Notes under the pieces: generated by a model | Seen by the model: the letters and a program-made list of their open reading frames with translations, nothing else | Told to the model about the DNA's origin: nothing | Databases searched by the model: none | Assembly: GCA_052033585.1 (NCBI GenBank) | Contig: JBPOJM010000007.1 | Location: forward strand, 9,187 to 73,186 | DNA: 64,000 nt | Direction: 5' to 3' | Origin: Patescibacteria group bacterium | GTDB taxonomy: Bacteria; Patescibacteriota; Patescibacteriia; 2-12-FULL-60-25 | Shown: in pieces, positions 1 through 45,902 of the stretch | Numbering within the stretch: the first letter of the stretch is position 1 | Layout: each line of letters begins with the position of its first letter | Made by a program: the position numbers and the translations under genes

Positions 1-3000
1 TGTGAACGACGCATGCGATACGGCTCTGACCCACATTCCTCTGGCACAATCCCGACATCCCACAAAAACTTGTGCCAAAAACGCGAATACAATAAGTGAA
101 GGGTCGTATGCTCCATCCCCCCGTTATACAAATCCACGGGCATCCAATATTTCAATGCCTCCGATGAAGCCAACTCTTTGTCATTATGTGGATCACAGTA
201 TCGCAAGAAATACCAACTCGACCCGGCCCAATTCGGCATGGTATCCGTTTCACGCATCGCGGGGCCTCCGCACTCCGGACACGTTGTCTCAACCCAGTCG
301 CGAATCTTCGCAAGTGGTGACTCCCCCGTATCGGTCGGCTCATACGCCTCAACCTCCGGCAACTTCAAAGGAAGCTGATTCTCTGGTACAGGAATCCAGC
401 CCGTGTTTTTACTCGTAAGGACTTCACGAATAATCTCAGGATGATCACTCAAAAGAAAATGCCCCTTCGCTCCAAGAGATTTTATGTACCAACCATTCGG
501 AATAAAGGCGTGCGATTGTTTTGGAATACGTGAATCATCGTCAGAAACCAAAACCACTCCACTACCAACGAGCGAATCAATTCGTTTCCAATCAATCGGT
601 CGATCCCAGATTTCACGGAGACATCTATAATCACGATCCGGACGAACCGCCTGCTTCTCTGCCCAGTCTTCATCAGAAATAGGTCCAATCAAAGGGGCGA
701 CCAAATACACATGTCCAATCTTACGACCAAGGTCTTGCACCAGATTAACAGCCACTAGTCCGCCAAGACTATGCCCAACAATCACATCGTCTTCGCCAAA
801 TCCCTCGGCCAATGGTCGCAAAACACTCATCCACTCGTCATACTTTGGAGCTTTCGGATTCGGCAAGCTTGGAACAAACACCTCAAACCCTTGTTTTTCC
901 AAGGCGCACTTTAAAGCAGGAAGCCAATTCTTATTAGCATTCGCGCCTGTTCCATGAATAAGCAAAGCCTTCTGCTTTTTCTTGGCACACGCCCCGCAAT
1001 GCACCAGCGGAATCGGTTCTCCCCAATAGCGTTGACGAGAAAACACCCAATCACGCAAACGATACGTCGACATACCTTTCCCGCTCCCACGCTCTTCCAA
1101 CCAAGACACGACTTCCTCTTTCGCTTTCCAGGTCGGCGCTCCATCCAAAAATCCAGAGTTCATGGCATGCCCCTCTCCTGTCCAGCACGCATGCACAACA
1201 TCAACGCCAAGATGGCCATAGGCTCCCGCACTCGCACCGGCTGCTTCCATCGGACTCCGTTCGACAACAGGGGGACCCTGCACAACAGGTCGAATCGGTA
1301 ACCCAAACGTCTTCGCAAACGCATAATCACGTTCATCATGAGCGGGCACCGCCATCACTGCCCCCGTTCCATACCCCGCCAACACATAATCCGAAATCCA
1401 AACTGGCACGCGCTCCCCATTCACGGGATTCACTGCAAACACCCCCGGCAAGCGCACCCCCGTCTTCTCCCCTTCCCCCGTCCGTTCCTCCTCAGATTTC
1501 TTACTTACTTTTTCAATATACCCTTGTACATTTTCCCACCCCTCTTGAACTTTAAGCTTTTGTACAAGCTCATGTTCCGGCGCGAGTGTCACATACGTCA
1601 CCCCAAAAATCGTATCAGGACGCGTCGTAAACACCTTCAGCTCATAGGAACACAACTCGGTCAGAGTACGCGTAAGCGGTCCCAATTCAACATGAACGGA
1701 TTCTTCCTCCGTCTGATCAACAACGTATTTATTATTGGCCGCGACTCGATACAATCCACGTACCGGAAAATAGATATCCATCTCCCCCTTGCGCTCAGTC
1801 GTCAAAACGATCTGGCGTTTATTCTCTGCCATCTCTTCGGTTCCATCTGGCAAGCGCAACGCCGTCACATCCAACCAATGGCCTGTAACCTCCCCACCAT
1901 GCTTTTCAGCAATCCCACGATAAAACGCATCCATCGCTTTTGCCTTCTCTTCCTGCGTCATCGACGCCTCATCACGTCCCCCCAGAGCATTACGTTTTGG
2001 CGTCGCAACATTCAACTTCTCTCCTGCGATAAACAACCCCGTATCCATACCCAAAATGGGCAGATCTACCATCTGGGCATAGGCAGCCGCTTTAGCACGC
2101 GCATTTTCACGCATGTCATCTCCTTCTTTCACGTCTTGCTCCTCTAAACCAAGATCCGCAGGAGACAACACCTCAAGTCCAGGCAACGTTGCTCCCAGCA
2201 GCTTCTTCACACGTGCAAGTTTGCTTTTATTATTGGTCGCGACCAACACCCGCTCAAACTTTGGAATCCGAAACACAATCTCCGCGCCTTCACTTTTCCC
2301 AATCCAATTCACCTGCTGCGACTTAATCTTGTCGAGATAATCAACCTTATCTAAATCCGTTAACAACCGTTGCGCATAATCCGTGATCCGAATCATCCAT
2401 TGCTCTTTCTCACGCTTCTCAACCTCCGTTCCACAGCGTTCACATACACCTCCCTGTGCCTCTTCATTTGCAAGTCCAATCTTATCTTTCGGACACCAAT
2501 TAATCGTCGATGACGCCTTATACGCCATCCCGTATTTAAAAAATTGCAAGAACTGCCACTGCGTCCATTTAAAATAGGCCGGATCCGTTGTATTAATTTC
2601 CCTCGACCAATCAAACCCGAACCCCAACGATTTTATCTGCCGCGTAAAATTCCCTACATTCTTCGCCGTGGCATCCACCGGCTTCACCTTGTTCTTGATC
2701 GCATAATTCTCCGTTGGCAACCCAAACGCATCCCATCCAATTGGGTAAAGAACATTCTTCCCCTCCATACGCTGCTTGCGCGTCGCAATATCAATGGCCG
2801 TATACGATCGCGGATGCCCCACATGCAACCCATCCCCCGACGGATACGGAAATTCAATAAGTCCGTAAAACTTAGTATCGCGTATCGAGTATCCAGTATC
2901 ACGTATGGAAGCGGCTTCAGCTCCAGCCTCGTTCTGACGCTGGATACTCTCCGTCTCCGGCTGCTTTGCCGAATAGGTTCCTTCTTCTTGCCAAGCTTTC

Positions 3001-3041
3001 TGCCATTTAGCCTCCATGTCATGAATTGGGCGCGGTTGCAT
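1..3041 (-). CDS. leuS: leucyl-tRNA synthetase, 3'-truncated by window edge, with two extra inserted modules
   Basis: Absent from the ORF track because it has no in-window stop. My reverse-strand translation from ATG 3041-3039 gives MQPRPIHDMEAKWQKAWQEEGTY... It contains 'PYPSGDGLHVGHP' (HIGH region), 'VFTTRPDTIFGVTYVTLAPEH' (CP1 editing domain), 'AVPAHDERDYAFA', 'RQRYWGEPIP', 'CPECGG' and 'NGGMEHTTLHLLYSRFWHKF'. The frame stays open to position 1. Confidence 0.9.
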   Translation of the reverse strand, partial: MQPRPIHDMEAKWQKAWQEEGTYSAKQPETESIQRQNEAGAEAASIRDTGYSIRDTKFYGLIEFPYPSGDGLHVGHPRSYTAIDIATRKQRMEGKNVLYPIGWDAFGLPTENYAIKNKVKPVDATAKNVGNFTRQIKSLGFGFDWSREINTTDPAYFKWTQWQFLQFFKYGMAYKASSTINWCPKDKIGLANEEAQGGVCERCGTEVEKREKEQWMIRITDYAQRLLTDLDKVDYLDKIKSQQVNWIGKSEGAEIVFRIPKFERVLVATNNKSKLARVKKLLGATLPGLEVLSPADLGLEEQDVKEGDDMRENARAKAAAYAQMVDLPILGMDTGLFIAGEKLNVATPKRNALGGRDEASMTQEEKAKAMDAFYRGIAEKHGGEVTGHWLDVTALRLPDGTEEMAENKRQIVLTTERKGEMDIYFPVRGLYRVAANNKYVVDQTEEESVHVELGPLTRTLTELCSYELKVFTTRPDTIFGVTYVTLAPEHELVQKLKVQEGWENVQGYIEKVSKKSEEERTGEGEKTGVRLPGVFAVNPVNGERVPVWISDYVLAGYGTGAVMAVPAHDERDYAFAKTFGLPIRPVVQGPPVVERSPMEAAGASAGAYGHLGVDVVHACWTGEGHAMNSGFLDGAPTWKAKEEVVSWLEERGSGKGMSTYRLRDWVFSRQRYWGEPIPLVHCGACAKKKQKALLIHGTGANANKNWLPALKCALEKQGFEVFVPSLPNPKAPKYDEWMSVLRPLAEGFGEDDVIVGHSLGGLVAVNLVQDLGRKIGHVYLVAPLIGPISDEDWAEKQAVRPDRDYRCLREIWDRPIDWKRIDSLVGSGVVLVSDDDSRIPKQSHAFIPNGWYIKSLGAKGHFLLSDHPEIIREVLTSKNTGWIPVPENQLPLKLPEVEAYEPTDTGESPLAKIRDWVETTCPECGGPAMRETDTMPNWAGSSWYFLRYCDPHNDKELASSEALKYWMPVDLYNGGMEHTTLHLLYSRFWHKFLWDVGIVPEECGSEPYRMRRS

Positions 3042-3098
3042 AATGAAAAGAAGGTATCAATACCAGACAAAAATGGAAAGGCTTAGAAAAAGAAGAAG

Positions 3099-3119
3099 CG
3101 CCTGCTTTCGCAAGACGCT
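3099..3119 (-). terminator. intrinsic terminator hairpin (GAAA loop) upstream of leuS
   Basis: The minus strand reads agcgtcttgc-gaaa-gcaggcgct followed by tcttcttttt. Confidence 0.5.
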
Positions 3120-3145
3120 ATAAAAAGAAGGGTGGGGACTAAGCC

Positions 3146-3370
3146 TCACATCATGATGTCAGGGGTGCTGAGGTTGTACCACCTGCTGAGAGTATCCCCC
3201 AACTTCGCGAACGGATCCGAGCCCGCGAACGGGTCAGGACGAGCCGAAGAAACGGCGGGGGAAGTGGGACGCTGATCAGCCGGGGGATCATCCTTGCGCG
3301 TATCCATGACAGATCCTGTCCGTCGTAACCCATGCGGGGTGAAGTCCCCTAGGGCATCGGTCACGACCAC
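3146..3370 (-). CDS. hypothetical small low-complexity protein (doubtful)
   Basis: Track ORF of 74 aa with a GTG start, bracketed by hairpins at 3377-3408 and 3099-3119. The sequence is Pro/Asp-rich and I recognise no homology. Confidence 0.25.
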   Translation of the reverse strand: MVVTDALGDFTPHGLRRTGSVMDTRKDDPPADQRPTSPAVSSARPDPFAGSDPFAKLGDTLSRWYNLSTPDIMM

Positions 3371-3376
3371 AGAACC

Positions 3377-3408
3377 AAAAACCTCCCGGCGTACACCGGA
3401 AGGTTTTT
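3377..3408. terminator. bidirectional terminator-like hairpin
   Basis: aaaaacctcccgg / ccggaaggttttt form a 13-bp stem with one mismatch, and both strands have flanking A/T runs. Confidence 0.45.
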
Positions 3409-7306: not shown

Positions 7307-7499
7307 CCGTCATTCCGAAAGAGGAGTCCGACGACGACGGAGGAATCTCGACCGGAAACAGGTAGCCAGCGAACCCAACCCCTCCAACTCCCCCCGCATA
7401 ATGGTGCTGGGCAGGCTCTTGTCAGGGGAGAGCATAAAAAGAGGATACCTGCTTCGCTGCGAGATCCCTCACTGCGTATGACTCCGTTCGGGATGACGG
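7307..7499. repeat. MITE/REP-like element bounded by inverted CCGTCATYCCGAA ends
   Basis: ccgtcattccgaa (7307-7319) is the inverted match of ttcgggatgacgg (7487-7499). The right part (7452-7499) belongs to the repeat family also seen at 42494-42577 and 45793-45902. Confidence 0.5.
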
Positions 7500-24782: not shown

Positions 24783-25788
24783 TGCTGACTAGCATTCTGC
24801 AAACAGTAAACAAAATCAACCCATAATGGGTCGCACAATAATGTTTCACGTGAAACATTCCATCAAAATTCATCCAGAAAAAAGTAAAAAGATCGAACAC
24901 GGCACGAATCCGTTGACAGCAAACACAAACATAAAAAGTACGGCTAAACGTGGTAATGAACTAGAAGAAAATGTTTCACGTGAAACAATACTCAAACTAT
25001 TCTTGAAACAAAGCCACCACTCTCAGGAAGAAGTACGGCAAGCGTCGTATAATAATGTTTCACGTGAAACATTAAGCAGAATCACACGCCTCAGAAATTC
25101 AACCAAGAAGTCGGTAGATACTTCATGTGAAACATCTATCGACAGCCCAAACCGCCAAAATCACTGATATAAACAGATCAAATTAAAGTACGAAAGTAGG
25201 CTGTGTAATGTTTCACGTGAAACATTACACGTCGCAGCACTCAAACAATAGAACAGACGCACTGCCTTAACTGACAAGCGTCGCATAATAATGTTTCACG
25301 TGAAACATTGCGCAAAATGTCGTGCCACAGAAAGTGGGCAAGGAAATCAATGAATGTTTCACGTGAAACATACATTGATAATCTGAGGCATATGAAGCAC
25401 AGAGAAAGACGGATCGATCATATATAAAAAAGAAATAACGTAATGTTTCACGTGAAACATTACGTTACCTAAAATAAGTGATAAATTCAGATCAAAAAAT
25501 TAAATAAACTTTGAGATGAGAAAAATTCATTGTATGGAATGTCAAAAATGTTTCACGTGAAACATTGCTCCATTCTATAAACCTTGTAACTGTAATGTTT
25601 CACGTGAAACATTACAGTTACAAGAAATTACAAGCTACTTAGTATAATCAATCCATTGATTGATATCGCTCAGCTATGCCTCATGCTAGAAAATTCATCA
25701 TATGAGACTCCTTAAGTACTAAAATAATAGAAATGCGGTCAATTGTTTTAGCCATAAACGGATTGCTCTACCATGCAAACATTACATA

Positions 25789-25821
25789 CAAAAAAACAAC
25801 GGCTATTGCGTTGTTTTTTTG
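25789..25821. terminator. terminator hairpin downstream of tRNA-Ala(CGC)
   Basis: caaaaaaacaac-ggctattgc-gttgtttttttg. Confidence 0.6.
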
Positions 25822-25823
25822 TA

Positions 25824-25899
25824 TGGTGGACCGAAGGAGAGTCGAACTCCTGACCTCTGCAATGCGAATGCAGCGCTCTACCAACTGAGCTATCGGCCC
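25824..25899 (-). tRNA. tRNA-Ala (anticodon CGC), CCA encoded
   Basis: The reverse complement GGGCCGATAGCTCAGTTGGTAGAGCGCTGCATTCGCATTGCAGAGGTCAGGAGTTCGACTCTCCTTCGGTCCACCA has the G3:U70 pair and a TTCGCAT anticodon loop. Confidence 0.9.
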
Positions 25900-26120
25900 A
25901 AAATTTTTCAAAATGTTTCACGTGAAACATTGCTCAACTTATAGCACTCGACAGGGGATCTAAGCTAATGTTTCACGTGAAACATTAGCTTATGTACTGT
26001 ATAACACTTTATTCTGAGAATTTGCTGCATTTGCTCAAAAAATCTGACTACCACCATCGACGCATGAGCAATGTTTCACGTGAAACATTAACAAGAATAT
26101 CCCATGAATACCACCAAAAT

Positions 26121-26166: not shown

Positions 26167-26241
26167 TGGCGTTCCCAAGTGGAATCGAACCACTATTTAG
26201 GGCTTAGGAGTCCCTCGTTCTATCCATTGAACTATGGGAAC
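26167..26241 (-). tRNA. tRNA-Arg (anticodon CCU), CCA encoded
   Basis: The reverse complement GTTCCCATAGTTCAATGGATAGAACGAGGGACTCCTAAGCCCTAAATAGTGGTTCGATTCCACTTGGGAACGCCA has a CTCCTAA anticodon loop. There is one A.G mismatch at the 31-39 pair. Confidence 0.8.
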
Positions 26242-27749: not shown

Positions 27750-27820
27750 CGCCCATTACCATAATCTAGAAACGCAAAACGCAAAAGCCCCTGACTCGTA
27801 ACATAAAATCATCTGCCCAG

Positions 27821-28008
27821 CTCCCCTCATCTAAGGCTCGCATGCCTGTGGCTTTTTTATTCCGACAGCTGTCTGAGCAAGGAGATGATGCTGTTGGGGT
27901 CGAGTTGCGGTTGCAGGCTTCGGCTCCGGTCCACCATAAGTACTACAGGTGGAATGCGAGTTCTGTAGGAATAAAAAAGCCACAGGCATGCGAGCCCATC
28001 GCCTAAAT
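27821..28008. repeat. foldback element A1: conserved flanks, 34-bp locus-specific inverted repeats, conserved core
   Basis: IR-left at 27835-27868 (ggctcgcatgcctgtggcttttttattccgacag) pairs with IR-right at 27963-27996 with one mismatch. The core at 27869-27962 is shared with the 33.0 and 42.3 kb copies. The right flank is CATCGCCTA. Confidence 0.8.
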
Positions 28009-28012
28009 AACA

Positions 28013-30709
28013 TTATTCCATCTCCTCCCAATTCAACCCTTTCTTTGTCTCCACCACAATTGGCACCCCCACCTTCTCTACATTCTCCATGGTCTCTTTC
28101 ACAAACTGCGCCACGCGCTCCGCATCTTTCTCAGGGACCTCAAGTACAACTTCATCATGCACCTGCAACAACATCTTCGCCTCTTTACACACCATCGGTA
28201 ATTTTTTATCAATCTCAATCATCGCAAGCTTCATCAAGTCCGCCGCTGTTCCTTGCAGAGGCATATTCACGGCCATACGTTCTGCTTGTGCCCGCAACAT
28301 CGGAATCGAAGACAAAATCTCCGGCATCGGACGCTTTCGTCCAAACAACGTTTCCACGTATCCAAGCTTACGTGCCAACGCTTTCGTCTCTTCAATATAG
28401 GTCCGAAACTGCGCATACACCTGAAAATATTTCTCAATAAAAATCTTCGCTTCCGCGTACGAAATCCCTGCGACACTCGCAAGCCCATGCGCTCCTTGTC
28501 CATACAGAATTCCAAAGTTGATCGTCTTCGCCGTGCGTCGCTGATCACTCGTCACATCTTTCAATGCCACACCCGCAATCTTTGCCGCCGTCGCCCGATG
28601 AATATCCTCACCATGCAAAAACGCATCCGTCATGGCTGGATCTTTAGACAAAGCTGCCGCCAATCGCAATTCAATCTGTGAGTAGTCGCACGAGACCAAG
28701 ACATTTCCCGTGTCCGCAATAAACGCCCGACGAATTCTGCGCCCAGCCCCTGTCTTAATCGGAATATTCTGCAAATTCGGATCCGTAGACGACAACCGTC
28801 CTGTGGCTGCTACCGCTTGGTTATAGGTTGTATGTACGCGCCCCTTTGCATCCGCCAATAATGGCAGCACCTCCACATAAGTCGACAGCAGCTTCGAGAC
28901 TTCGCGGTAGTCCTCAATTTTCTCAATAATCGCATGCTGTCCACGCAGCTTCTCAAGCTCAGAAGCCGCCGTCGAATAGCCGGTTTTCCCTTTCTTTATA
29001 CCCTTCGTCGGCAATGCCAAATCCGTAAAGAGCATTTCCGCAAGTTGCGAAGGAGAAGCGGGATTAAACACACGTCCCACCATCTCCACCATCTCTTTCT
29101 CTAAACGAGATTTATCGGCACTAAATTCCTTCTGCAGAACACCAAGATATTTTCCATCCATCTTAATTCCCACCTCTTCCATCCGCGCCAAGACGGGCAC
29201 AAGCGGCAACTCAAACCGCGCCAAGACGTCCATCAATTGTTGCTTTTCCAGTTCGGCGCGCAGGGGCAGAATCAAGCCCATAACCACCTCTGCCTGCTTG
29301 ATCGGAGCCGCATCCGCCAGTAATGCCGTACCTAAATACCGCTCAGCTAAACTGGCTAAATCATGATTGCGTTCACCCGCTCCTAACAAATACGCCGCCA
29401 ACATCACATCAAACGACCAACGACCCAAATCAAGTTTCAACATCTGCAAACTTTTCACCTGAAGCTTAGCATCATGCGCCAAAAATCCCACCTTCACATC
29501 ATCAAATAGCTGCTGACAGGCATCGTGTATGTTTTTCTCCGCCCGAATCAACGTCGAAGGAATCTCAATCAAACACCCTTCACCTGTCATGAGACCAAAA
29601 ATGACGCTCTCAATGGCCTCTCCAAACAAAGATCCCTGAACCCCACGCGCCACATGCACCATCACCTCTTTTTGCTGATGAAGGCTTTGTAAAAATTCTA
29701 ACGCCTCTTTAGCACGCTCCAAACGTTTCACAGGAACATGCAAAAGAACACCCGTTCGACTACGAGCCGCCTGATGTACATCAGGCTCCATTGGGGATGT
29801 CGGAGACGCATTTTCATCCACGCGCTTGTCTTTTCCTGACATCTGAACCTTACCCACGAGCGACTTAAAGCCCATGCTTCGCAAAAACGTCCGCAACCCT
29901 TCCTGGTCTCGCTCCAATAAGTGCGGTTGCCATACAATCGGCGCATCCGTCACAATCGAAACCAAAGACACAATCGCCGGAATCTCTGATTCCGCTGCTA
30001 ACAACTTCTCGCGTGTAGACTTCGTCAAATCAGACGCTGCATCATGCGCCGCTCGCAAAATACCTTCCATATTCCCAAAGCGCTGCAACAAATCCGTCGC
30101 TCCCTTTTCTCCAATGCCCTTTACTCCTGGAATATTATCCGACGGATCACCACGCATCGCTTTATATTCCAAAAACTGCGCTGGCGTTAACCCAAAGCGC
30201 GCCTTCAACTCAGCTTCGTCATAGGTAAGCGTATCCGACACCCCTTTCTTAAACGTCATCACCGAAATCCCGGGTCGGATAAGCTGAAACGCATCCTTAT
30301 CACCCGTGACAATCACAACCTCCCACCCTTCTGCCTGCGCCCGCACCGCAATCGTCCCCAACAAATCATCCGCTTCATATCCGTCCAGCTCTAACGAATC
30401 CACCCCCAACGTCGCCAATCCCTGCTGAATCAAAGGGATCTGCGCATATAACTCGTCCGGCTGCTCCTCTCGATGTGCCTTATATTCCTTATACGCCTCA
30501 TGCCGAAACGTGGCCGCCTCCGTATCCCAACACGCCACCATCGCTTCAGGCATCTCGTTCTCGAGTAGCTTCATAACGATCATCATCACGCCATACACCG
30601 CATTCACGACCTGCCCCTCCGGATTCGTAAGCGGCGGAAGCGCATGCCAAGCACGATGCAAAAGCGCATTCGCATCCAAAATAAACAAGCGACGAGAAGC
30701 AGAAGACAT
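28013..30709 (-). CDS. polA: DNA polymerase I
   Basis: 898 aa with a 5'-nuclease N-terminus ('LILDANALLHRAWHA') and the family-A polymerase motifs 'DYSQIELRLAA', 'RRTAKTINFGILYG' and 'LLQVHDEVVLE'. Confidence 0.97.
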   Translation of the reverse strand: MSSASRRLFILDANALLHRAWHALPPLTNPEGQVVNAVYGVMMIVMKLLENEMPEAMVACWDTEAATFRHEAYKEYKAHREEQPDELYAQIPLIQQGLATLGVDSLELDGYEADDLLGTIAVRAQAEGWEVVIVTGDKDAFQLIRPGISVMTFKKGVSDTLTYDEAELKARFGLTPAQFLEYKAMRGDPSDNIPGVKGIGEKGATDLLQRFGNMEGILRAAHDAASDLTKSTREKLLAAESEIPAIVSLVSIVTDAPIVWQPHLLERDQEGLRTFLRSMGFKSLVGKVQMSGKDKRVDENASPTSPMEPDVHQAARSRTGVLLHVPVKRLERAKEALEFLQSLHQQKEVMVHVARGVQGSLFGEAIESVIFGLMTGEGCLIEIPSTLIRAEKNIHDACQQLFDDVKVGFLAHDAKLQVKSLQMLKLDLGRWSFDVMLAAYLLGAGERNHDLASLAERYLGTALLADAAPIKQAEVVMGLILPLRAELEKQQLMDVLARFELPLVPVLARMEEVGIKMDGKYLGVLQKEFSADKSRLEKEMVEMVGRVFNPASPSQLAEMLFTDLALPTKGIKKGKTGYSTAASELEKLRGQHAIIEKIEDYREVSKLLSTYVEVLPLLADAKGRVHTTYNQAVAATGRLSSTDPNLQNIPIKTGAGRRIRRAFIADTGNVLVSCDYSQIELRLAAALSKDPAMTDAFLHGEDIHRATAAKIAGVALKDVTSDQRRTAKTINFGILYGQGAHGLASVAGISYAEAKIFIEKYFQVYAQFRTYIEETKALARKLGYVETLFGRKRPMPEILSSIPMLRAQAERMAVNMPLQGTAADLMKLAMIEIDKKLPMVCKEAKMLLQVHDEVVLEVPEKDAERVAQFVKETMENVEKVGVPIVVETKKGLNWEEME

Positions 30710-32854: not shown

Positions 32855-32968
32855 ACGCCACATCGTCCATATACATACGACAGGCAACCCAATCATTCGC
32901 ACATCGAATTGTAAACGTCATGATCCTAACAAACTCCCCCCAATCCGTGAAGCCCCGGCCCATTCCCG

Positions 32969-33163
32969 CCCCCTCCTCCTCACCTAGAGCTCCGTTTGTG
33001 TGTTCTTTTTCCCCGTACTGCTGTCTGAGCAAGGAGACGACACCGCTGCTCTCGATTTGCGGTTGCAGGTGTTGGCTCCGGTCCGCCACAAATAAAGCTC
33101 CTCGGCGGAATGCGAGTTCAGTACGGGGAAAAAGAACAAACAAACGGAGCCCATCGCCTATAT
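32969..33163. repeat. foldback element A2
   Basis: IR-left at 32989-33020 (gctccgtttgtgtgttctttttccccgtactg) pairs with IR-right at 33119-33150 with one mismatch. The core at 33021-33118 is in the same orientation as A1. The flanks are ccccctcctcctcacctaga on the left and ccatcgcctatat on the right. Confidence 0.8.
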
Positions 33164-33196
33164 ATTTTTCCGCCCGAAGGCCATCCGCATCAAACA

Positions 33197-40112: not shown

Positions 40113-41516
40113 CTAAGCGGTAGTGTTATATAACCGCTCTAAAATGAGCGTGATATCCCGCTTCACCTGTGTATCATCCTGGATAAGCTGTGCAATTTTT
40201 TCACACGCATGCATAGCGGTTGTGTGATCGCGTCCACCTAAATGATCCCCAATGGTGGGGAAAGAACATTTTGTTTCCTCACGCAAAAGATACATCGCGA
40301 TTTGGCGCGGTAAAGCAAACCGTTGTTCGCGACTTTTGCCTACGATCTGCTCATGACTAATGTCGTAGTGTCCACGCACCGCCTCAATGAGTAAGCGTGG
40401 GCTTACCGTTCGTTTAGTGATCGTAGGGGTAAAGCTCTGGAGTAGAGGCTGAATCGAGCTCGCGCTTGGCTGAATATTTTTAAACTGGTGGTAGGCGATA
40501 ATCTTGTTGAGTGCGCCTTCAAGCTCGCGGATATTGGATTGAATGGCTCCCGCCATCATGTGCAGGATCTCGGTCGATAGTGGGTAGTTCTTTTCTCGAG
40601 CCTTTGCCTCTAAAATCGCCACACGTGTCTCAAAATCCGGTTTTGTAATATCAATCATCATGCCCCATTCAAAGCGCGACTGAAGGCGGCTTTCTAGGGT
40701 CTGGATATCTTTAGGTGGGCGGTCAGATGCAATCACGATCTGCTTATTGTTCTGGTGGAGGGTATTAAAGGTGTGAAAAAATTCTTCCTGTGTTCCTTCT
40801 TTTCCAGTTAAAAACTGGATATCATCAATCAAAAGCACGTCAACTGTTCGATAACGATCCTTAAAATCCCCTGCGGCTCCGCTGCGCACCGCTTGGATAA
40901 ACTCATTTGTAAACCGTTCACAGGTTACATACTGTACCTTGGCATTTGTATTATCCCGACACACATGGTGCCCAATCGCCTGGAGTAAGTGCGTCTTTCC
41001 CATCCCCACCCCTCCGTAAATAAACAAGGGGTTATATGCTTGTCCCGGCTTCGCTGACACGGCCATACAGGCCGCATGAGCTAATTCATTATTTTTTCCC
41101 ACAATAAACTGTGGAAAGGTGTAGCGAGGGTTAAGTCCAAGATCTGCCGCCCGCGTCGTCGGCTCAAAAGAAGATCCATCCACGCCAGGCGCTTGAAGAG
41201 GGTCGTGTTCCGAATCGGTGGAGGGAGTTGGTTCAGCTAAATGCTCAATCGGGAGCACGGTGGTGTTCCGTACCTCAACACGATAATGGATTTCTCTGAT
41301 CGGCTGTGAACAGGCGGAGCGCAATGCTTTGGCAATCGCGTCATGGTATTTGCGCTCTAGCCAAGATTTTGTAAACGTATTTGGTACAGCCACCACCACC
41401 CGTCCATTTTCGTAGGAACTGATAAAGGTGTTGCGAAACCAGGTGGTAAAATTGGCCTTGGATAAGGTGAGCTCGATCTCACCGAGGGCGGATTGCCAAA
41501 GTGCTTGCAAGTCCAT
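40113..41516 (-). CDS. dnaA: chromosomal replication initiator DnaA
   Basis: 467 aa with Walker A 'GGVGMGKTHLL', 'LLIDDIQFL', sensor motifs and the C-terminal DNA-binding 'LPRQIAMYLLRE...GGRDHTTAMHA'. Confidence 0.97.
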   Translation of the reverse strand: MDLQALWQSALGEIELTLSKANFTTWFRNTFISSYENGRVVVAVPNTFTKSWLERKYHDAIAKALRSACSQPIREIHYRVEVRNTTVLPIEHLAEPTPSTDSEHDPLQAPGVDGSSFEPTTRAADLGLNPRYTFPQFIVGKNNELAHAACMAVSAKPGQAYNPLFIYGGVGMGKTHLLQAIGHHVCRDNTNAKVQYVTCERFTNEFIQAVRSGAAGDFKDRYRTVDVLLIDDIQFLTGKEGTQEEFFHTFNTLHQNNKQIVIASDRPPKDIQTLESRLQSRFEWGMMIDITKPDFETRVAILEAKAREKNYPLSTEILHMMAGAIQSNIRELEGALNKIIAYHQFKNIQPSASSIQPLLQSFTPTITKRTVSPRLLIEAVRGHYDISHEQIVGKSREQRFALPRQIAMYLLREETKCSFPTIGDHLGGRDHTTAMHACEKIAQLIQDDTQVKRDITLILERLYNTTA

Positions 41517-41563
41517 AGGAGTATATGCTGGATACTTTCAATCCTGCATCACATTGTCAAACA

Positions 41564-41601
41564 TGTGGATAACCCGTGGAAAAACCAACAGTTTATCCAC
41601 A
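41564..41601. promoter_or_regulatory. two perfect DnaA boxes (oriC / dnaA promoter region)
   Basis: TGTGGATAA at 41564-41572 and TTATCCACA at 41593-41601, in the dnaA-rpmH divergent intergenic region. Confidence 0.75.
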
Positions 41602-41680
41602 GCTTATCAAAAACCATGGGGATTTTGCGGGGAGAGACCTTGCCAAAACCAAATAAATATCCTAGAGTACTCCCATTCTT

Positions 41681-41845
41681 ATGGCTACCAAACGAACCTA
41701 CCAGCCCAAAAAGCGTCGACGCGCTCGCGTTCACGGGTTTCGTGCACGCATGCAAACCGCTGACGGTCGCGAAGTTCTCTCTCGCCGTCGCGCCAAAGGC
41801 CGCAAACGCATCGCCATTAAAACGGCCAAGGTCAACAAGCGTTAA
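41681..41845 (+). CDS. rpmH: 50S ribosomal protein L34
   Basis: Too short for the track. My translation is [54 protein letters not shown]. Confidence 0.93.
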
Positions 41846-41849
41846 TCCC

Positions 41850-42260
41850 GTGCTCCCACGCACCGATCGCCTGCGCCGCATGCGCGACTTCGCCCTCCTC
41901 TCCCAGAGGGGGCGCGTTGTTTTTGGCCCATTTTTCACCCTCCGCTTCCGCCCAAGCCAAGAACCTACCAAAATCGGTTTCGTTGCCAGCGCCAAAATCT
42001 TCAAAACCGCCGTCGCTCGCAACCGCGTCAAACGCCGCCTCCGCGAAGCTCTCGGAGTCGTCCGCCCCTTCTGGCCATTAAAGATGGATATCCTCTTTAT
42101 CGCTAAGCCCGAAGCCACGACCACGGAATACCAGGCTCTCGTCGCCTCCGTAAAACGCGCCTTCGAAAAAATCCCCGAAGCCCTCAAAGCACCTCCAACC
42201 CCCCGCAAAAACCCCAAAGCCCGCCGCAAAACGTCGGTTGTATATAAGGGCGGGTCGTGA
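41850..42260 (+). CDS. rnpA: RNase P protein component
   Basis: In frame within track ORF 41493..42260. The GTG at 41850 gives 'LPRTDRLRRMRDFALLSQRGR...AVARNRVKRRLREA', which contains the RNR motif. It follows rpmH. Confidence 0.85.
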   Translation: MLPRTDRLRRMRDFALLSQRGRVVFGPFFTLRFRPSQEPTKIGFVASAKIFKTAVARNRVKRRLREALGVVRPFWPLKMDILFIAKPEATTTEYQALVASVKRAFEKIPEALKAPPTPRKNPKARRKTSVVYKGGS

Positions 42261-42274
42261 TCCCTAATCGTTAC

Positions 42275-42472
42275 CCCCTCCTCGACTCCTCTAGGGCTCC
42301 GACACAAGTGCTATTTTTGATCAACTGAACTCGCATTCCGCCTTTATTGTGCTCTTTGTGACGGACCGGAGCTAAGTCCTGCAACCGCAAATCGAGTGCA
42401 ACGGCCTTAGCTCCTTGCTCGGACAGCAGTTGATCAAAAATAGCACTTGTGTCGGAGCCCATCGCCTATTCC
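42275..42472. repeat. foldback element A3, with core inverted relative to A1/A2
   Basis: IR-left at 42294-42327 (gggctccgacacaagtgctatttttgatcaactg) pairs perfectly with IR-right at 42427-42460. The core at 42328-42426 is the reverse complement of the A1/A2 cores, while the outer flanks (ccccctcctc..ctctag on the left, catcgcctatt on the right) keep the A2 orientation. Confidence 0.8.
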
Positions 42473-42493
42473 TCTTTATTTCCCGAAGGGGCT

Positions 42494-42577
42494 ACCCGTT
42501 CCGCTGCGAGATCTCTCGACTGCGCCACGTCGTTCGCGAATGACGTGGCTGCGTATAACTTCGCTCGAGATGACAGG
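42494..42577. repeat. REP-like repeat family B, copy 2
   Basis: acccgttccgctgcgagatctctcgact-[gccacgtcgttcgcgaatgacgtggc]-tgcgtataacttcgctcgagatgacagg. Confidence 0.7.
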
Positions 42578-42586
42578 CAAAATAGT

Positions 42587-42844
42587 ATGCGCCTCTTTTT
42601 TCAATACCTAATACGTTTGTATCAAAACACCCTGTCTTTAGACCACGGGCCTCTTCGTCGTTTCACGACCCAACCAAGATGCAAATTCCACCCCACCTGC
42701 TCCCAGTACGCCTACGACGCCATTGGTCGTTTTGGAGTATTCAATGGCGTACATCTCGCCATAAAACGTATCTTCCGCTGCCATCCCTGGACGTTAGGAG
42801 GAATTGACCCGATTCCAGAAAAACTTGTAAAAAAATATAAATAA
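42587..42844 (+). CDS. yidD: membrane protein insertion efficiency factor YidD
   Basis: Inside track ORF 42449..42844. 'CKFHPTCSQYAYDAIGRFGVFNGVHLAIKRIFRCHPW..GGIDPIP' is the YidD signature. Confidence 0.9.
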   Translation: MRLFFQYLIRLYQNTLSLDHGPLRRFTTQPRCKFHPTCSQYAYDAIGRFGVFNGVHLAIKRIFRCHPWTLGGIDPIPEKLVKKYK

Positions 42845-45750: not shown

Positions 45751-45792
45751 ACACCACCCCTTCCGAGGCGGCGTTTGTTTCTCTCTGATAAT

Positions 45793-45902
45793 ACCCGTTC
45801 CGCTGCGAGATCCCTCACTCCGACACGTCATTCGCGAACGACGTGTCTTCGTATGACTTCGTTCGGGACACGTCGCTCGCGAGCGACGTGTCGGGATGAC
45901 GG
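45793..45902. repeat. REP-like repeat family B, copy 3 (two internal 26-bp palindromes)
   Basis: acccgttccgctgcgagatccctcact... contains gacacgtcattcgcgaacgacgtgtc (45822-47) and gacacgtcgctcgcgagcgacgtgtc (45867-92), and ends in gggatgacgg. Confidence 0.7.

Follow-up and report, generated by a model that had tools for sequence, protein, structure and literature searches.

A family of strand-oriented foldback repeats with exchangeable cores, inserted in intergenic DNA of a small group of Patescibacteria

Background

Patescibacteria have tiny genomes that are thought to be poor in repeats. Modular palindromic repeats such as the pneumococcal BOX and the Neisseria Correia elements have ends that are conserved inverted repeats, and integron attC sites carry R''/R' boxes (RYYYAAC/GTTRRRY) and stand in arrays next to intI. 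In Escherichia coli, quasipalindrome correction perfects an imperfect inverted repeat by intramolecular template switching and can invert the spacer. In the present study, we analyzed three foldback loci in a 64,000-nt stretch of DNA from a Patescibacteria group bacterium (contig JBPOJM010000007.1, positions 9,187 to 73,186; hereafter the window, numbered from 1), together with related copies in other assemblies (given by L numbers). The comparisons indicate that the loci are members of a hairpin repeat family, not described before, whose copies have been inserted with a uniform strand orientation into the DNA of a small group of Patescibacteria.

The elements share with BOX and Correia repeats the conserved end modules, an exchangeable middle, the stem fold, an intergenic and co-transcribed setting, small genomes and the lack of an obvious dedicated transposase; however, the BOX and Correia repeats, with their inverted-repeat ends, have no sequence similarity to the elements described here. 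Arms that are perfect but particular to a locus, a middle part that flips and an orientation that is uniform relative to strand skew are not known from either family. The likeness to attC sites lies in shape-based recognition, in a variable self-complementary sequence between short conserved ends, in a central structure of variable size, and in a position at the 3' end of genes with an orientation fixed relative to replication. In contrast to attC sites, the present elements have no R''/R' boxes, array or intI, their arms are far longer and without extrahelical bases, and the copies are dispersed beside polA, tRNA-Cys and rnpA; an integron attC site was thus rejected. Quasipalindrome correction combines both behaviours of the present elements, copying between arms and inversion of the spacer. 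However, it is a process and not an element family, and its operation here would be read from sequence patterns.

REPINs are REP doublets that form hairpins and are mobilised by RAYT transposases, and compensatory changes are common in them (Bertels and Rainey 2011, PMC3116915). The present elements resemble them in being intergenic, non-coding and multi-copy, in forming a long hairpin that tolerates change on both sides, in their conserved ends and in a presumed action as single-stranded DNA. However, the inverted repeat of a REPIN consists of conserved 16-25-mers and its middle is the least conserved part, whereas here the stem varies, the middle is most conserved and the ends are asymmetric. 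Furthermore, no RAYT gene was found here (39 open reading frames of the window; tblastn of 318 kb with approximate queries), and the copies number about ten, not hundreds.

Foldback loci and common anatomy of the family

The three loci are the longest close inverted repeats in the entire 64 kb window, with arms of 34, 32 and 34 nt that are 97, 97 and 100% complementary and are spaced by 94, 98 and 99 nt, respectively. An earlier note, made from the letters of the window, had described near-perfect arms around a conserved core and between conserved flanks. This description holds: the three cores have a mean identity of 86% with long invariant blocks, and the right-flank sequence GAGCCCATCGCCTA is exact, occurring exactly three times in the window and each time on the + strand (three matches were found in none of 100 shuffles). 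On the left, a CTAGGGCTC-like motif with a C/T-rich run ahead of it was found at the window loci. The arms are indeed only loosely similar between the three copies, with little in common except GCTC, a T5-6 run (the one common part that the note had named) and CTG/CAG at the inner end. The parts of the three loci are as follows.

27815-27834, + strand: locus 1 left flank, the end of the C/T-rich tract and the conserved CATCTAAG motif outside the stem; CCCCTCATCTAAGGCTC
27835-27868, no strand assigned: locus 1 left arm, GGCTC, 13 nt, T6, 10 nt; 34 nt, 97% complementary to 27963-27996
27869-27962, + strand: locus 1 A-type core, 94 nt; predicted three-way junction with helices P3 and P4
27963-27996, no strand assigned: locus 1 right arm, from inverted-repeat detection
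27997-28005, + strand: locus 1 right flank, final part of GAGCCCATCGCCTA (27992-28005); the polA stop codon is next, at 28013-28015
32970-32988, + strand: locus 2 C/T-rich tract and left flank; CCCCTCCTCCTCACCTAGA
32989-33020, no strand assigned: locus 2 left arm, 32 nt, 97% complementary; arm subfamily 2
33021-33118, + strand: locus 2 A-type core, 98 nt
33119-33150, no strand assigned: locus 2 right arm, from inverted-repeat detection
33151-33160, + strand: locus 2 right flank, end of GAGCCCATCGCCTA (33147-33160)
42274-42293, + strand: locus 3 C/T-rich tract and left flank; CCCCCTCCTCGACTCCTCTA; the rnpA reading frame ends at 42260
42294-42327, no strand assigned: locus 3 left arm, 34 nt, 100% complementary; arm subfamily 3
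42328-42426, - strand: locus 3 A-type core, 99 nt, inverted with respect to the flanks
42427-42460, no strand assigned: locus 3 right arm, from inverted-repeat detection
42461-42468, + strand: locus 3 right flank, end of GAGCCCATCGCCTA (42455-42468), with a CCCGAAGGGG mini-hairpin, a D-type repeat and finally yidD (start at 42587) beyond it

The sample consists throughout of metagenome assemblies and amounts to a few hundred kb of five or six genomes. An initial metagenome scan with the core pattern gave zero matches. A core-pattern search found 15 further copies in three metagenome-assembled genomes (MAGs), namely Patescibacteria Gw_Eff_bin_533 and two assemblies that are labelled 'uncultured Gammaproteobacteria' and have the same genes. 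A pattern made of the two flanks found, in metagenome contigs, one more copy (L038), one element with a different, B-type core (L039) and one chance match (L037). The elements with the core of the window loci, termed A-type, total 16 complete and two truncated copies, with 5-7 or more per MAG. A homolog of YidD with 75% identity has the NCBI name Candidatus Uhrbacteria, which is a weak hint of the lineage.

Read on the C-rich strand, an element consists of a C/T-rich tract of 20-35 nt, the motif CATCTARG, one stem half (GCTC, 13-14 nt, T5-6 and 9-10 nt), the core, the complementary stem half and CCATCGCCTA, which is often followed by TATATCACAATCCAA or by a CCCGAAGGG mini-hairpin. Between the same asymmetric flank motifs, three unrelated core types were found: A, B (L006, L014 and L039) and C (about 68 nt, between ATCTAAGGTCT and AGACCCATCGCCTA, in L014). 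CATCTARG is conserved across all three types, and it is not the reverse complement of the other end motif, CCATCGCCTA. Both remain constant while the base of the stem covaries (GGGCTC/GAGCCC, GGACTC/GAGTCC and GGTCT/AGACC). These comparisons indicate that the flanks serve as a common carrier in which unrelated cores can sit, a point that the earlier note had missed together with the core inversion at locus 3 and the insertion nature of the elements.

The window elements have as neighbours polA, the gene of a 280-aa protein, tRNA-Cys, rnpA and yidD; an exact-sequence look-up of a 215-aa protein encoded beside locus 2 returned no record. The C/T-rich tract, which lies to the left of every element (for example window 27800-27830 and 32950-32985; L007, L010, L002 and L005), gives runs of G3-6 on the other strand, and several copies fit a four-run G-quadruplex pattern with repeated GGAGG. 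Farther left of the tract, many copies have a motif like ACGYAACATCAAATCAYC. The mini-hairpin 10-20 nt past the right flank is GCCCGAAGGGC-like (window 33172-33182 and 42481-42490; L001, L011, L014, L006 and L039), and its complement, on the gene-sense strand, is C(UUCG)G, a very stable RNA tetraloop. Two further resemblances were dismissed as too short to be meaningful: upstream motifs recall the 3' end of 16S, and about 10 nt of the left flank recall the anticodon-stem and variable-loop region of tRNA-Arg(CCT). In the latter, AGCCCTARAT of the tRNA-Arg CCT (window 26200-26215; also L014 and L035) matches the complement of the left flank, probably by chance; a remnant in L035, TATCTAAGGCTTAGG, is closer still to this tRNA.

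Insertion between conserved genes and strand orientation

At two junctions, relatives have empty sites between the same genes, which shows the elements to be insertions. The MAGs with elements are JAGOUY01, CAZTQP01, CAZIQG01 and CAZLRU01, besides the window genome, and a close MAG, CAYTIN01, is without them at both sites examined; the runs that gave L014-L023 and JAGOUY01 are from wastewater and groundwater. The spacer between polA and the 280-aa-protein gene is 263-268 nt with an element (window, L013 and L014) and 2-4 nt in L030 and L024-L029; the spacer between rnpA and yidD is about 325 nt with an element (window and L001) and 2-8 nt in L044-L053. In L042, the element is absent from the rnpA/yidD junction, which has only a D-type repeat (see below). 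The polA junction was found in the following states.

Window and L013: A-type element
L014-L023 (ten samples, all identical): same flanks with an unrelated B-type core of about 140 nt
L035 and L036: degenerate remnant and another repeat
L030 and L024-L029: nothing, 2-4 nt
L031: 57 nt

In 20 of 20 elements (16 A, 3 B and 1 C, from about 15 independent loci), the strand that runs from the left to the right flank is the C-rich strand on both sides of the element; the direction of replication is here deduced from GC skew alone. The skew of the window is negative, with a C-rich + strand, whichever strand the genes occupy, which indicates that replication contributes to it. At most loci, a gene of the opposite strand ends (3') next to the right flank. 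At the rnpA-yidD locus, the genes lie on the + strand, as do the flanks, and the orientation of the flanks still follows the skew; this case, a single independent locus, suggests that orientation tracks skew and not transcription. In the same region (40113-42844), dnaA on the - strand and rpmH-rnpA-yidD on the + strand are divergent, as at a typical origin. The sign of the skew is constant throughout the window, including the dnaA/rnpA region; since it does not change, the origin is probably elsewhere, or the skew is a poor guide in this genome.

The position of the right flank invites another explanation. Like REP/BIME elements and the RNase III sites of phage T7, the element could be an immobile, cis-acting and very stable mRNA hairpin just downstream of a gene, which would shield the message upstream of it or keep cistrons apart and would be read on the gene-sense (G-rich) strand. 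The right flank mostly adjoins a gene 3' end and at times provides its TAG stop codon, a cUUCGg-type mini-hairpin often stands ahead of the element on the gene-sense strand, G-rich, Shine-Dalgarno-like runs come after it, and all five transition-type arm mismatches would be G-U on that strand. However, relatives have spacers of 2-8 nt at the same junctions, the flanks at rnpA-yidD are oriented oppositely relative to the genes, and the stem has no U-tract after it. Furthermore, such a hairpin would leave unexplained the conserved 95-nt core, which covaries on the opposite strand, and the three alternative cores. We consider this explanation improbable. An intrinsic terminator was rejected, as no U tract directly follows the stem.

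Complementary change in the arms

The arm statistics come from 15 aligned copies, which are related, so that the counts are not independent events. Watson-Crick pairs occupy 470 of the 478 arm cells (98.3%); read on the core-sense strand, the exceptions are five C-A and three other cells, with no G-T. At 22 of the 32 arm pairs, both sides have been altered, and the covariation score of 0.671 exceeds the 0.143 obtained by shuffling (reached in none of 500 shuffles) and the values with a slid partner (0.11 at most). The earlier note had proposed concerted evolution of the two arms, by conversion or recombination between them or by strong selection for a duplex, and had named imperfect arms in additional copies as the observation that would speak against it. 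The double-sided changes and the orthologs described below support the proposal, and the 15 additional copies have only 0-2 arm mismatches each.

Both locus 1 and L013 follow the polA gene, and third codon positions are 65.5% identical between the two (about 35% divergence). Their arms are 76-79% identical (21-24% diverged), and each is complementary at 33-34 of 34 positions. The same pattern was observed for locus 2 and L011, in which several arm positions differ and each change is mirrored in the opposite arm, and for locus 3 and L001. Thus, orthologous loci differ at 3-7 of 29 arm positions and are still complementary at 33-34 of 34. As arm identity of 76-79% compares with 65.5% at third codon positions, the arms evolve no faster than silent sites.

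The variable arm columns have just 56% identity between copies, and the three window copies belong to three different arm subfamilies, of which subfamily 1 joins locus 1 with L003, L004, L005, L007 and L013. The arms of the window copies are thus locus-specific, as had been noted, but not in a wider sense: the subfamilies are common to several loci across genomes, and they unite several loci of one genome, such as L003, L004 and L007 at 10-14% apart.

Within the arm subfamilies, 15 compensated changes are transition-type and 18 are transversion-type. Together with the lack of G-T on the core-sense strand, the similar numbers of the two types favour arm-to-arm copying over stepwise compensation of the RNA style; copying at the DNA level would fit the arms better. 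The mutation that leads to C-A cells, G-to-A on the C-rich strand, is also expected from the skew. As for arms acting as guides or antisense sequences, no external match of at least 12 nt was found within the window.

Structure of the core

RNAalifold predicts that the A-type core forms a three-way junction closed by the arms. It contains two helices, P3 (GGAG.CGAUGCC / GGCAUCG.CUCC), the apical part of which is conserved, and P4 (UCCGCC / GGCGGA), the loop of which is variable. Six core pairs have been altered on both sides, with a covariation score of 0.198 as compared with 0.104 for shuffled sequences (reached in 0 of 500) and at most 0.07 for slid controls. On the core-sense strand, the core helices have seven variable G-U cells and one C-A, in addition to one invariant U-G pair, and they differ from the arms in G-U (Fisher p = 0.004). 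The ratio of seven to one, judged against the mutational bias, argues for selection on the core-sense strand as RNA or as single-stranded DNA. A protein-coding core was rejected, as no reading frame is conserved: open reading frames from the flank ATG encode 4-63 aa with different frames and stops, and the variation of the core tracks helix pairing rather than codon position.

Since the core covaries, it is probably more than filler, and the main rival of a mobile hairpin is therefore a cassette for the expression and processing of a small RNA, although the two are compatible. RNase III substrates include the stems that flank rRNAs. On this model of a processing stem, the flanks and the perfect stem would free core A, B or C in the form of a stable, structured small RNA, and the copies would be paralogous RNA genes. 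In addition to the covariation of P3 and P4 and the restriction of G-U to one strand, the long invariant single-stranded and apical blocks and the occurrence of three different structured cores in the same stem-and-flank setting agree with such a cassette. However, neither a sigma-70-like promoter at a fixed offset on either side nor a promoter-like site inside the core was found, and no terminator was found either, because there is no T/U tract after the stem on either strand, the T run being within the arm. Moreover, in most copies the flanking genes run antisense to the core-sense strand, the arms on this strand have C-A and never G-U, and one core is flipped relative to the presumed processing flanks. 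The core by itself is not unusually stable, as it folds no better than shuffled sequences (z from -1.3 to +0.3), and it matches no Rfam family. We therefore regard the small-RNA cassette as unlikely, while giving it more weight than the mRNA hairpin. If the core is nevertheless an expressed RNA, at least two unclassified RNA folds (A and B) would be added to those known.

Flipped and exchanged cores

Locus 3 has both flanks on the + strand and its core motifs on the - strand, whereas the core of its ortholog L001, which has the same rnpA and yidD neighbours and three arm differences, has the standard orientation. This is the outcome expected of a crossover between the arms. A perfect 34-bp repeat can mislead short-k-mer assemblers; however, 16 of 17 cores are oriented alike and only one is inverted, which weighs against random orientation calls by assemblers. 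An independent assembly of the same strain (L040, Logan SRR34217543), which corresponds to the window from 42431 onward, stops 4 nt into the right arm of locus 3. Its k of 31 is shorter than the 34-bp repeat, and such short-k assemblies cannot report the orientation of the core.

The arrangement recalls a programmed invertible switch (inverton), in which the arms would be recombination sites and the orientation of the core an on/off state: a perfect inverted repeat of 32-35 bp encloses a segment of about 95 bp, both orientations occur between orthologous loci (locus 3 and L001), and recA is present in the window. However, inversion was found in only one of the 17 cores, and the ten samples of the B-type locus are identical. 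The arm sequences differ between loci, so that there is no common recombinase site beyond 6 bp, the core has no promoter-like site, and none of the 39 open reading frames in the window encodes an invertase or recombinase. A switch of this kind is thus very improbable.

Cores and arms have discordant histories. The cores of L011 and L005 are 2% apart and their arms 64% apart, whereas between L011 and its ortholog, window locus 2, the arms are 21% and the cores 17% apart; similarly, the cores of L001 and L010 are 3% apart and their arms 37%. The switch in similarity is located at the arm/core boundary. This discordance shows that cores have moved or been converted between loci independently of the arms.

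Two other arrangements were observed at a C-type locus. L014 has, on the - strand at about 3000-3380, two tandem C-type cores, the first of which is without a matching right arm. In L017, another sample of the species of L014, the segment between the cores has been deleted in a recombinant manner, which leaves one chimeric element with non-complementary arms.

A more far-reaching explanation is that the flanks and a self-correcting perfect stem form a generic docking hairpin, into the tip of which cores A, B and C would be inserted, and in which they would be exchanged and flipped, by a dedicated hairpin-targeting mechanism. Its logic would be comparable to that of integron cassettes or of the hairpin-targeting IS110/IS1111, but without any known enzyme, and we consider it a long shot. 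If true, Patescibacteria would have a system of cassettes that carry non-coding structured modules of RNA or single-stranded DNA, and the orientation of the core would decide which strand's fold is expressed.

Relation to known elements and proposed mechanism

In a search of the window against Rfam 15, nothing except four tRNAs exceeded the gathering threshold. For locus 1, the top match was to a plant miRNA model and scored 21.6 bits, the threshold being 80, and the B-type element gave no match. Searches by E-value likewise gave no known RNA family. Core resemblances seen by eye to hammerhead, twister, SRP, ykkC and ZTP-like RNAs were dropped for want of Rfam support. As to a plasmid, phage or viral origin, blastn gave no match and three viral scans gave a single chance match (L041). 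Membership in a known Rfam, insertion sequence or miniature inverted-repeat transposable element (MITE) family with ordinary conserved terminal repeats, the other alternative raised in the earlier note, is thus not supported by these searches. No parent insertion sequence sharing the element ends was found in 318 kb (window and loci).

Presence/absence polymorphism at orthologous sites, as known from MITEs, was observed at polA/280-aa gene and rnpA/yidD. However, a MITE with conserved terminal inverted repeats was rejected, because the arms vary (56% identity) and the end motifs are not inverted repeats. The hairpin is preserved by compensatory change as in REPINs; it does not consist of two inverted copies of one conserved REP, as the arms have only GCTC, the T run and CTG in common. 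The uniform orientation to the replication strand, judged by skew, agrees with an IS200/IS605-type derivative (PATE). Such an element was nevertheless rejected, because one large hairpin spans the whole element in place of separate subterminal hairpins and no fixed target word was recognised. A retron non-coding RNA was also rejected, as no reverse transcriptase is encoded among the neighbours of the window loci and several copies occur per genome.

The explanation that we prefer, tentatively and at somewhat less than an even chance, is that of a lineage-specific modular foldback repeat inserted in the intergenic DNA of one Patescibacteria clade, the logic of which is closest to REPINs and MITEs and the build of which is different. 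In more general terms, it would be a REPIN/MITE-like mobile hairpin element that carries a structured module.

Several observations weigh against this preferred explanation. No transposase or recombinase was found among the 39 open reading frames of the window, and a tblastn search of 318 kb for a Y1 transposase gave no match, which is a weak negative because the IS200 and IS608 TnpA queries were approximate. Comparison of filled and empty sites revealed no evident direct repeat that could be a target-site duplication, with the empty-site genomes being highly diverged and the element limits vague. These limits are blurred on both sides, since the paralogs L004 and L007 are alike for more than 50 nt past the right flank and about 80 nt to the left of the element are also missing from empty sites. 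The copy number is low for a REPIN-like element, and the end motifs are conserved without being inverted repeats of each other. The positions of the elements are stable between genomes saturated at synonymous sites, and thus any movement must be rare. One-strand G-U tolerance and covariation point to a function of the core itself, which a purely selfish element would not need. The five C-A arm cells become G-U if they are read on the opposite, G-rich strand, from which an RNA hairpin may thus be read. Finally, the inversion at locus 3 is a single case known from assembly alone.

The following mechanism may be proposed for the modular foldback repeat. The DNA of the element would fold as a hairpin or cruciform, and a change in one arm would be copied to the other by intramolecular conversion, through template switching, through heteroduplex repair in the hairpin or through exchange of the arms by RecA; if the same reaction ended in a crossover, the core would be flipped. 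Genes for recA, comEC and an NYN nuclease are present in the window. For spread, a trans-acting enzyme might read the fork of flank motifs and stem on single-stranded DNA at the replication fork, which would explain the uniform strand orientation; a similar step has been proposed for REPINs (PMC3116915). A single-stranded DNA intermediate is suggested by this orientation, by the asymmetric end motifs around unrelated cores, by the empty sites and by the mosaic of hairpin repeats. The core would be a folded module under selection of its own, with its C-rich strand read as either RNA or single-stranded DNA, and may move between carriers by short-tract recombination or by insertion at the hairpin tip.

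Two constraints that are mostly confounded elsewhere stand apart in this element: the stem is apparently kept perfect by copying at the DNA level, and the core has RNA-type covariation on one strand. It may thus provide a natural system for the study of inverted-repeat homogenisation, spacer flipping and the movement of short structured modules. If the spread does use single-stranded DNA, an as yet undescribed enzyme would read the shape of fork plus stem.

Neighbouring repeats and other observations

Another family of hairpin repeats, termed D-type, clusters beside the foldback elements, has nested 22-nt palindromes and obeys the same strand rule. A D repeat consists of RGGATACCYGTTCCGCTGCGAGATCCCTCAC, a variable loop and CGTTCGGGATGACGG, in which GGGAU/AUCCC/GGGAU allows two mutually exclusive pairings. 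The copies (window 7445-7499, 42492-42577 and 45791-45902; L001, L005, L008, L013, L039, L042 and L044) always lie on the C-rich strand regardless of gene direction, often adjoining foldback elements, and D repeats also occur in the MAG without foldback elements at the tested sites. The copy at 42.5 kb has no match in Rfam. The 22-nt palindrome CACGTCNNTCGCGANNGACGTG is nested in D-repeat loops at window 42526-42547, 45824-45845 and 45869-45890, and short direct repeats (CGGG; CTYCG) are found at its junctions when the copy at 7445-7499, which is not interrupted, is used for comparison; the palindrome resembles a very small mobile hairpin with other hairpins as its insertion sites. Several nested families of strand-oriented hairpin repeats have made gene junctions of 2-8 nt into mosaics of 260-330 nt.

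A 3.2 kb contig (L022, JGI 3300045388) contains the B-type element and the downstream gene as in L014, and about 35 nt past the right flank the polA 3' end is replaced by another gene (weak sigma-70 region 2 match). This switch is due either to a rearrangement beside the element or to a chimeric contig.

At 24842-26087, the window has 12 exact copies of a parS-type palindrome, TGTTTCACGTGAAACA, within 1.25 kb. The array occupies a stretch with 40% G+C around tRNA-Ala, just upstream of tRNA-Arg, and is unusually dense and centromere-like; parS-type palindromes are present in the syntenic region of L017 as well.

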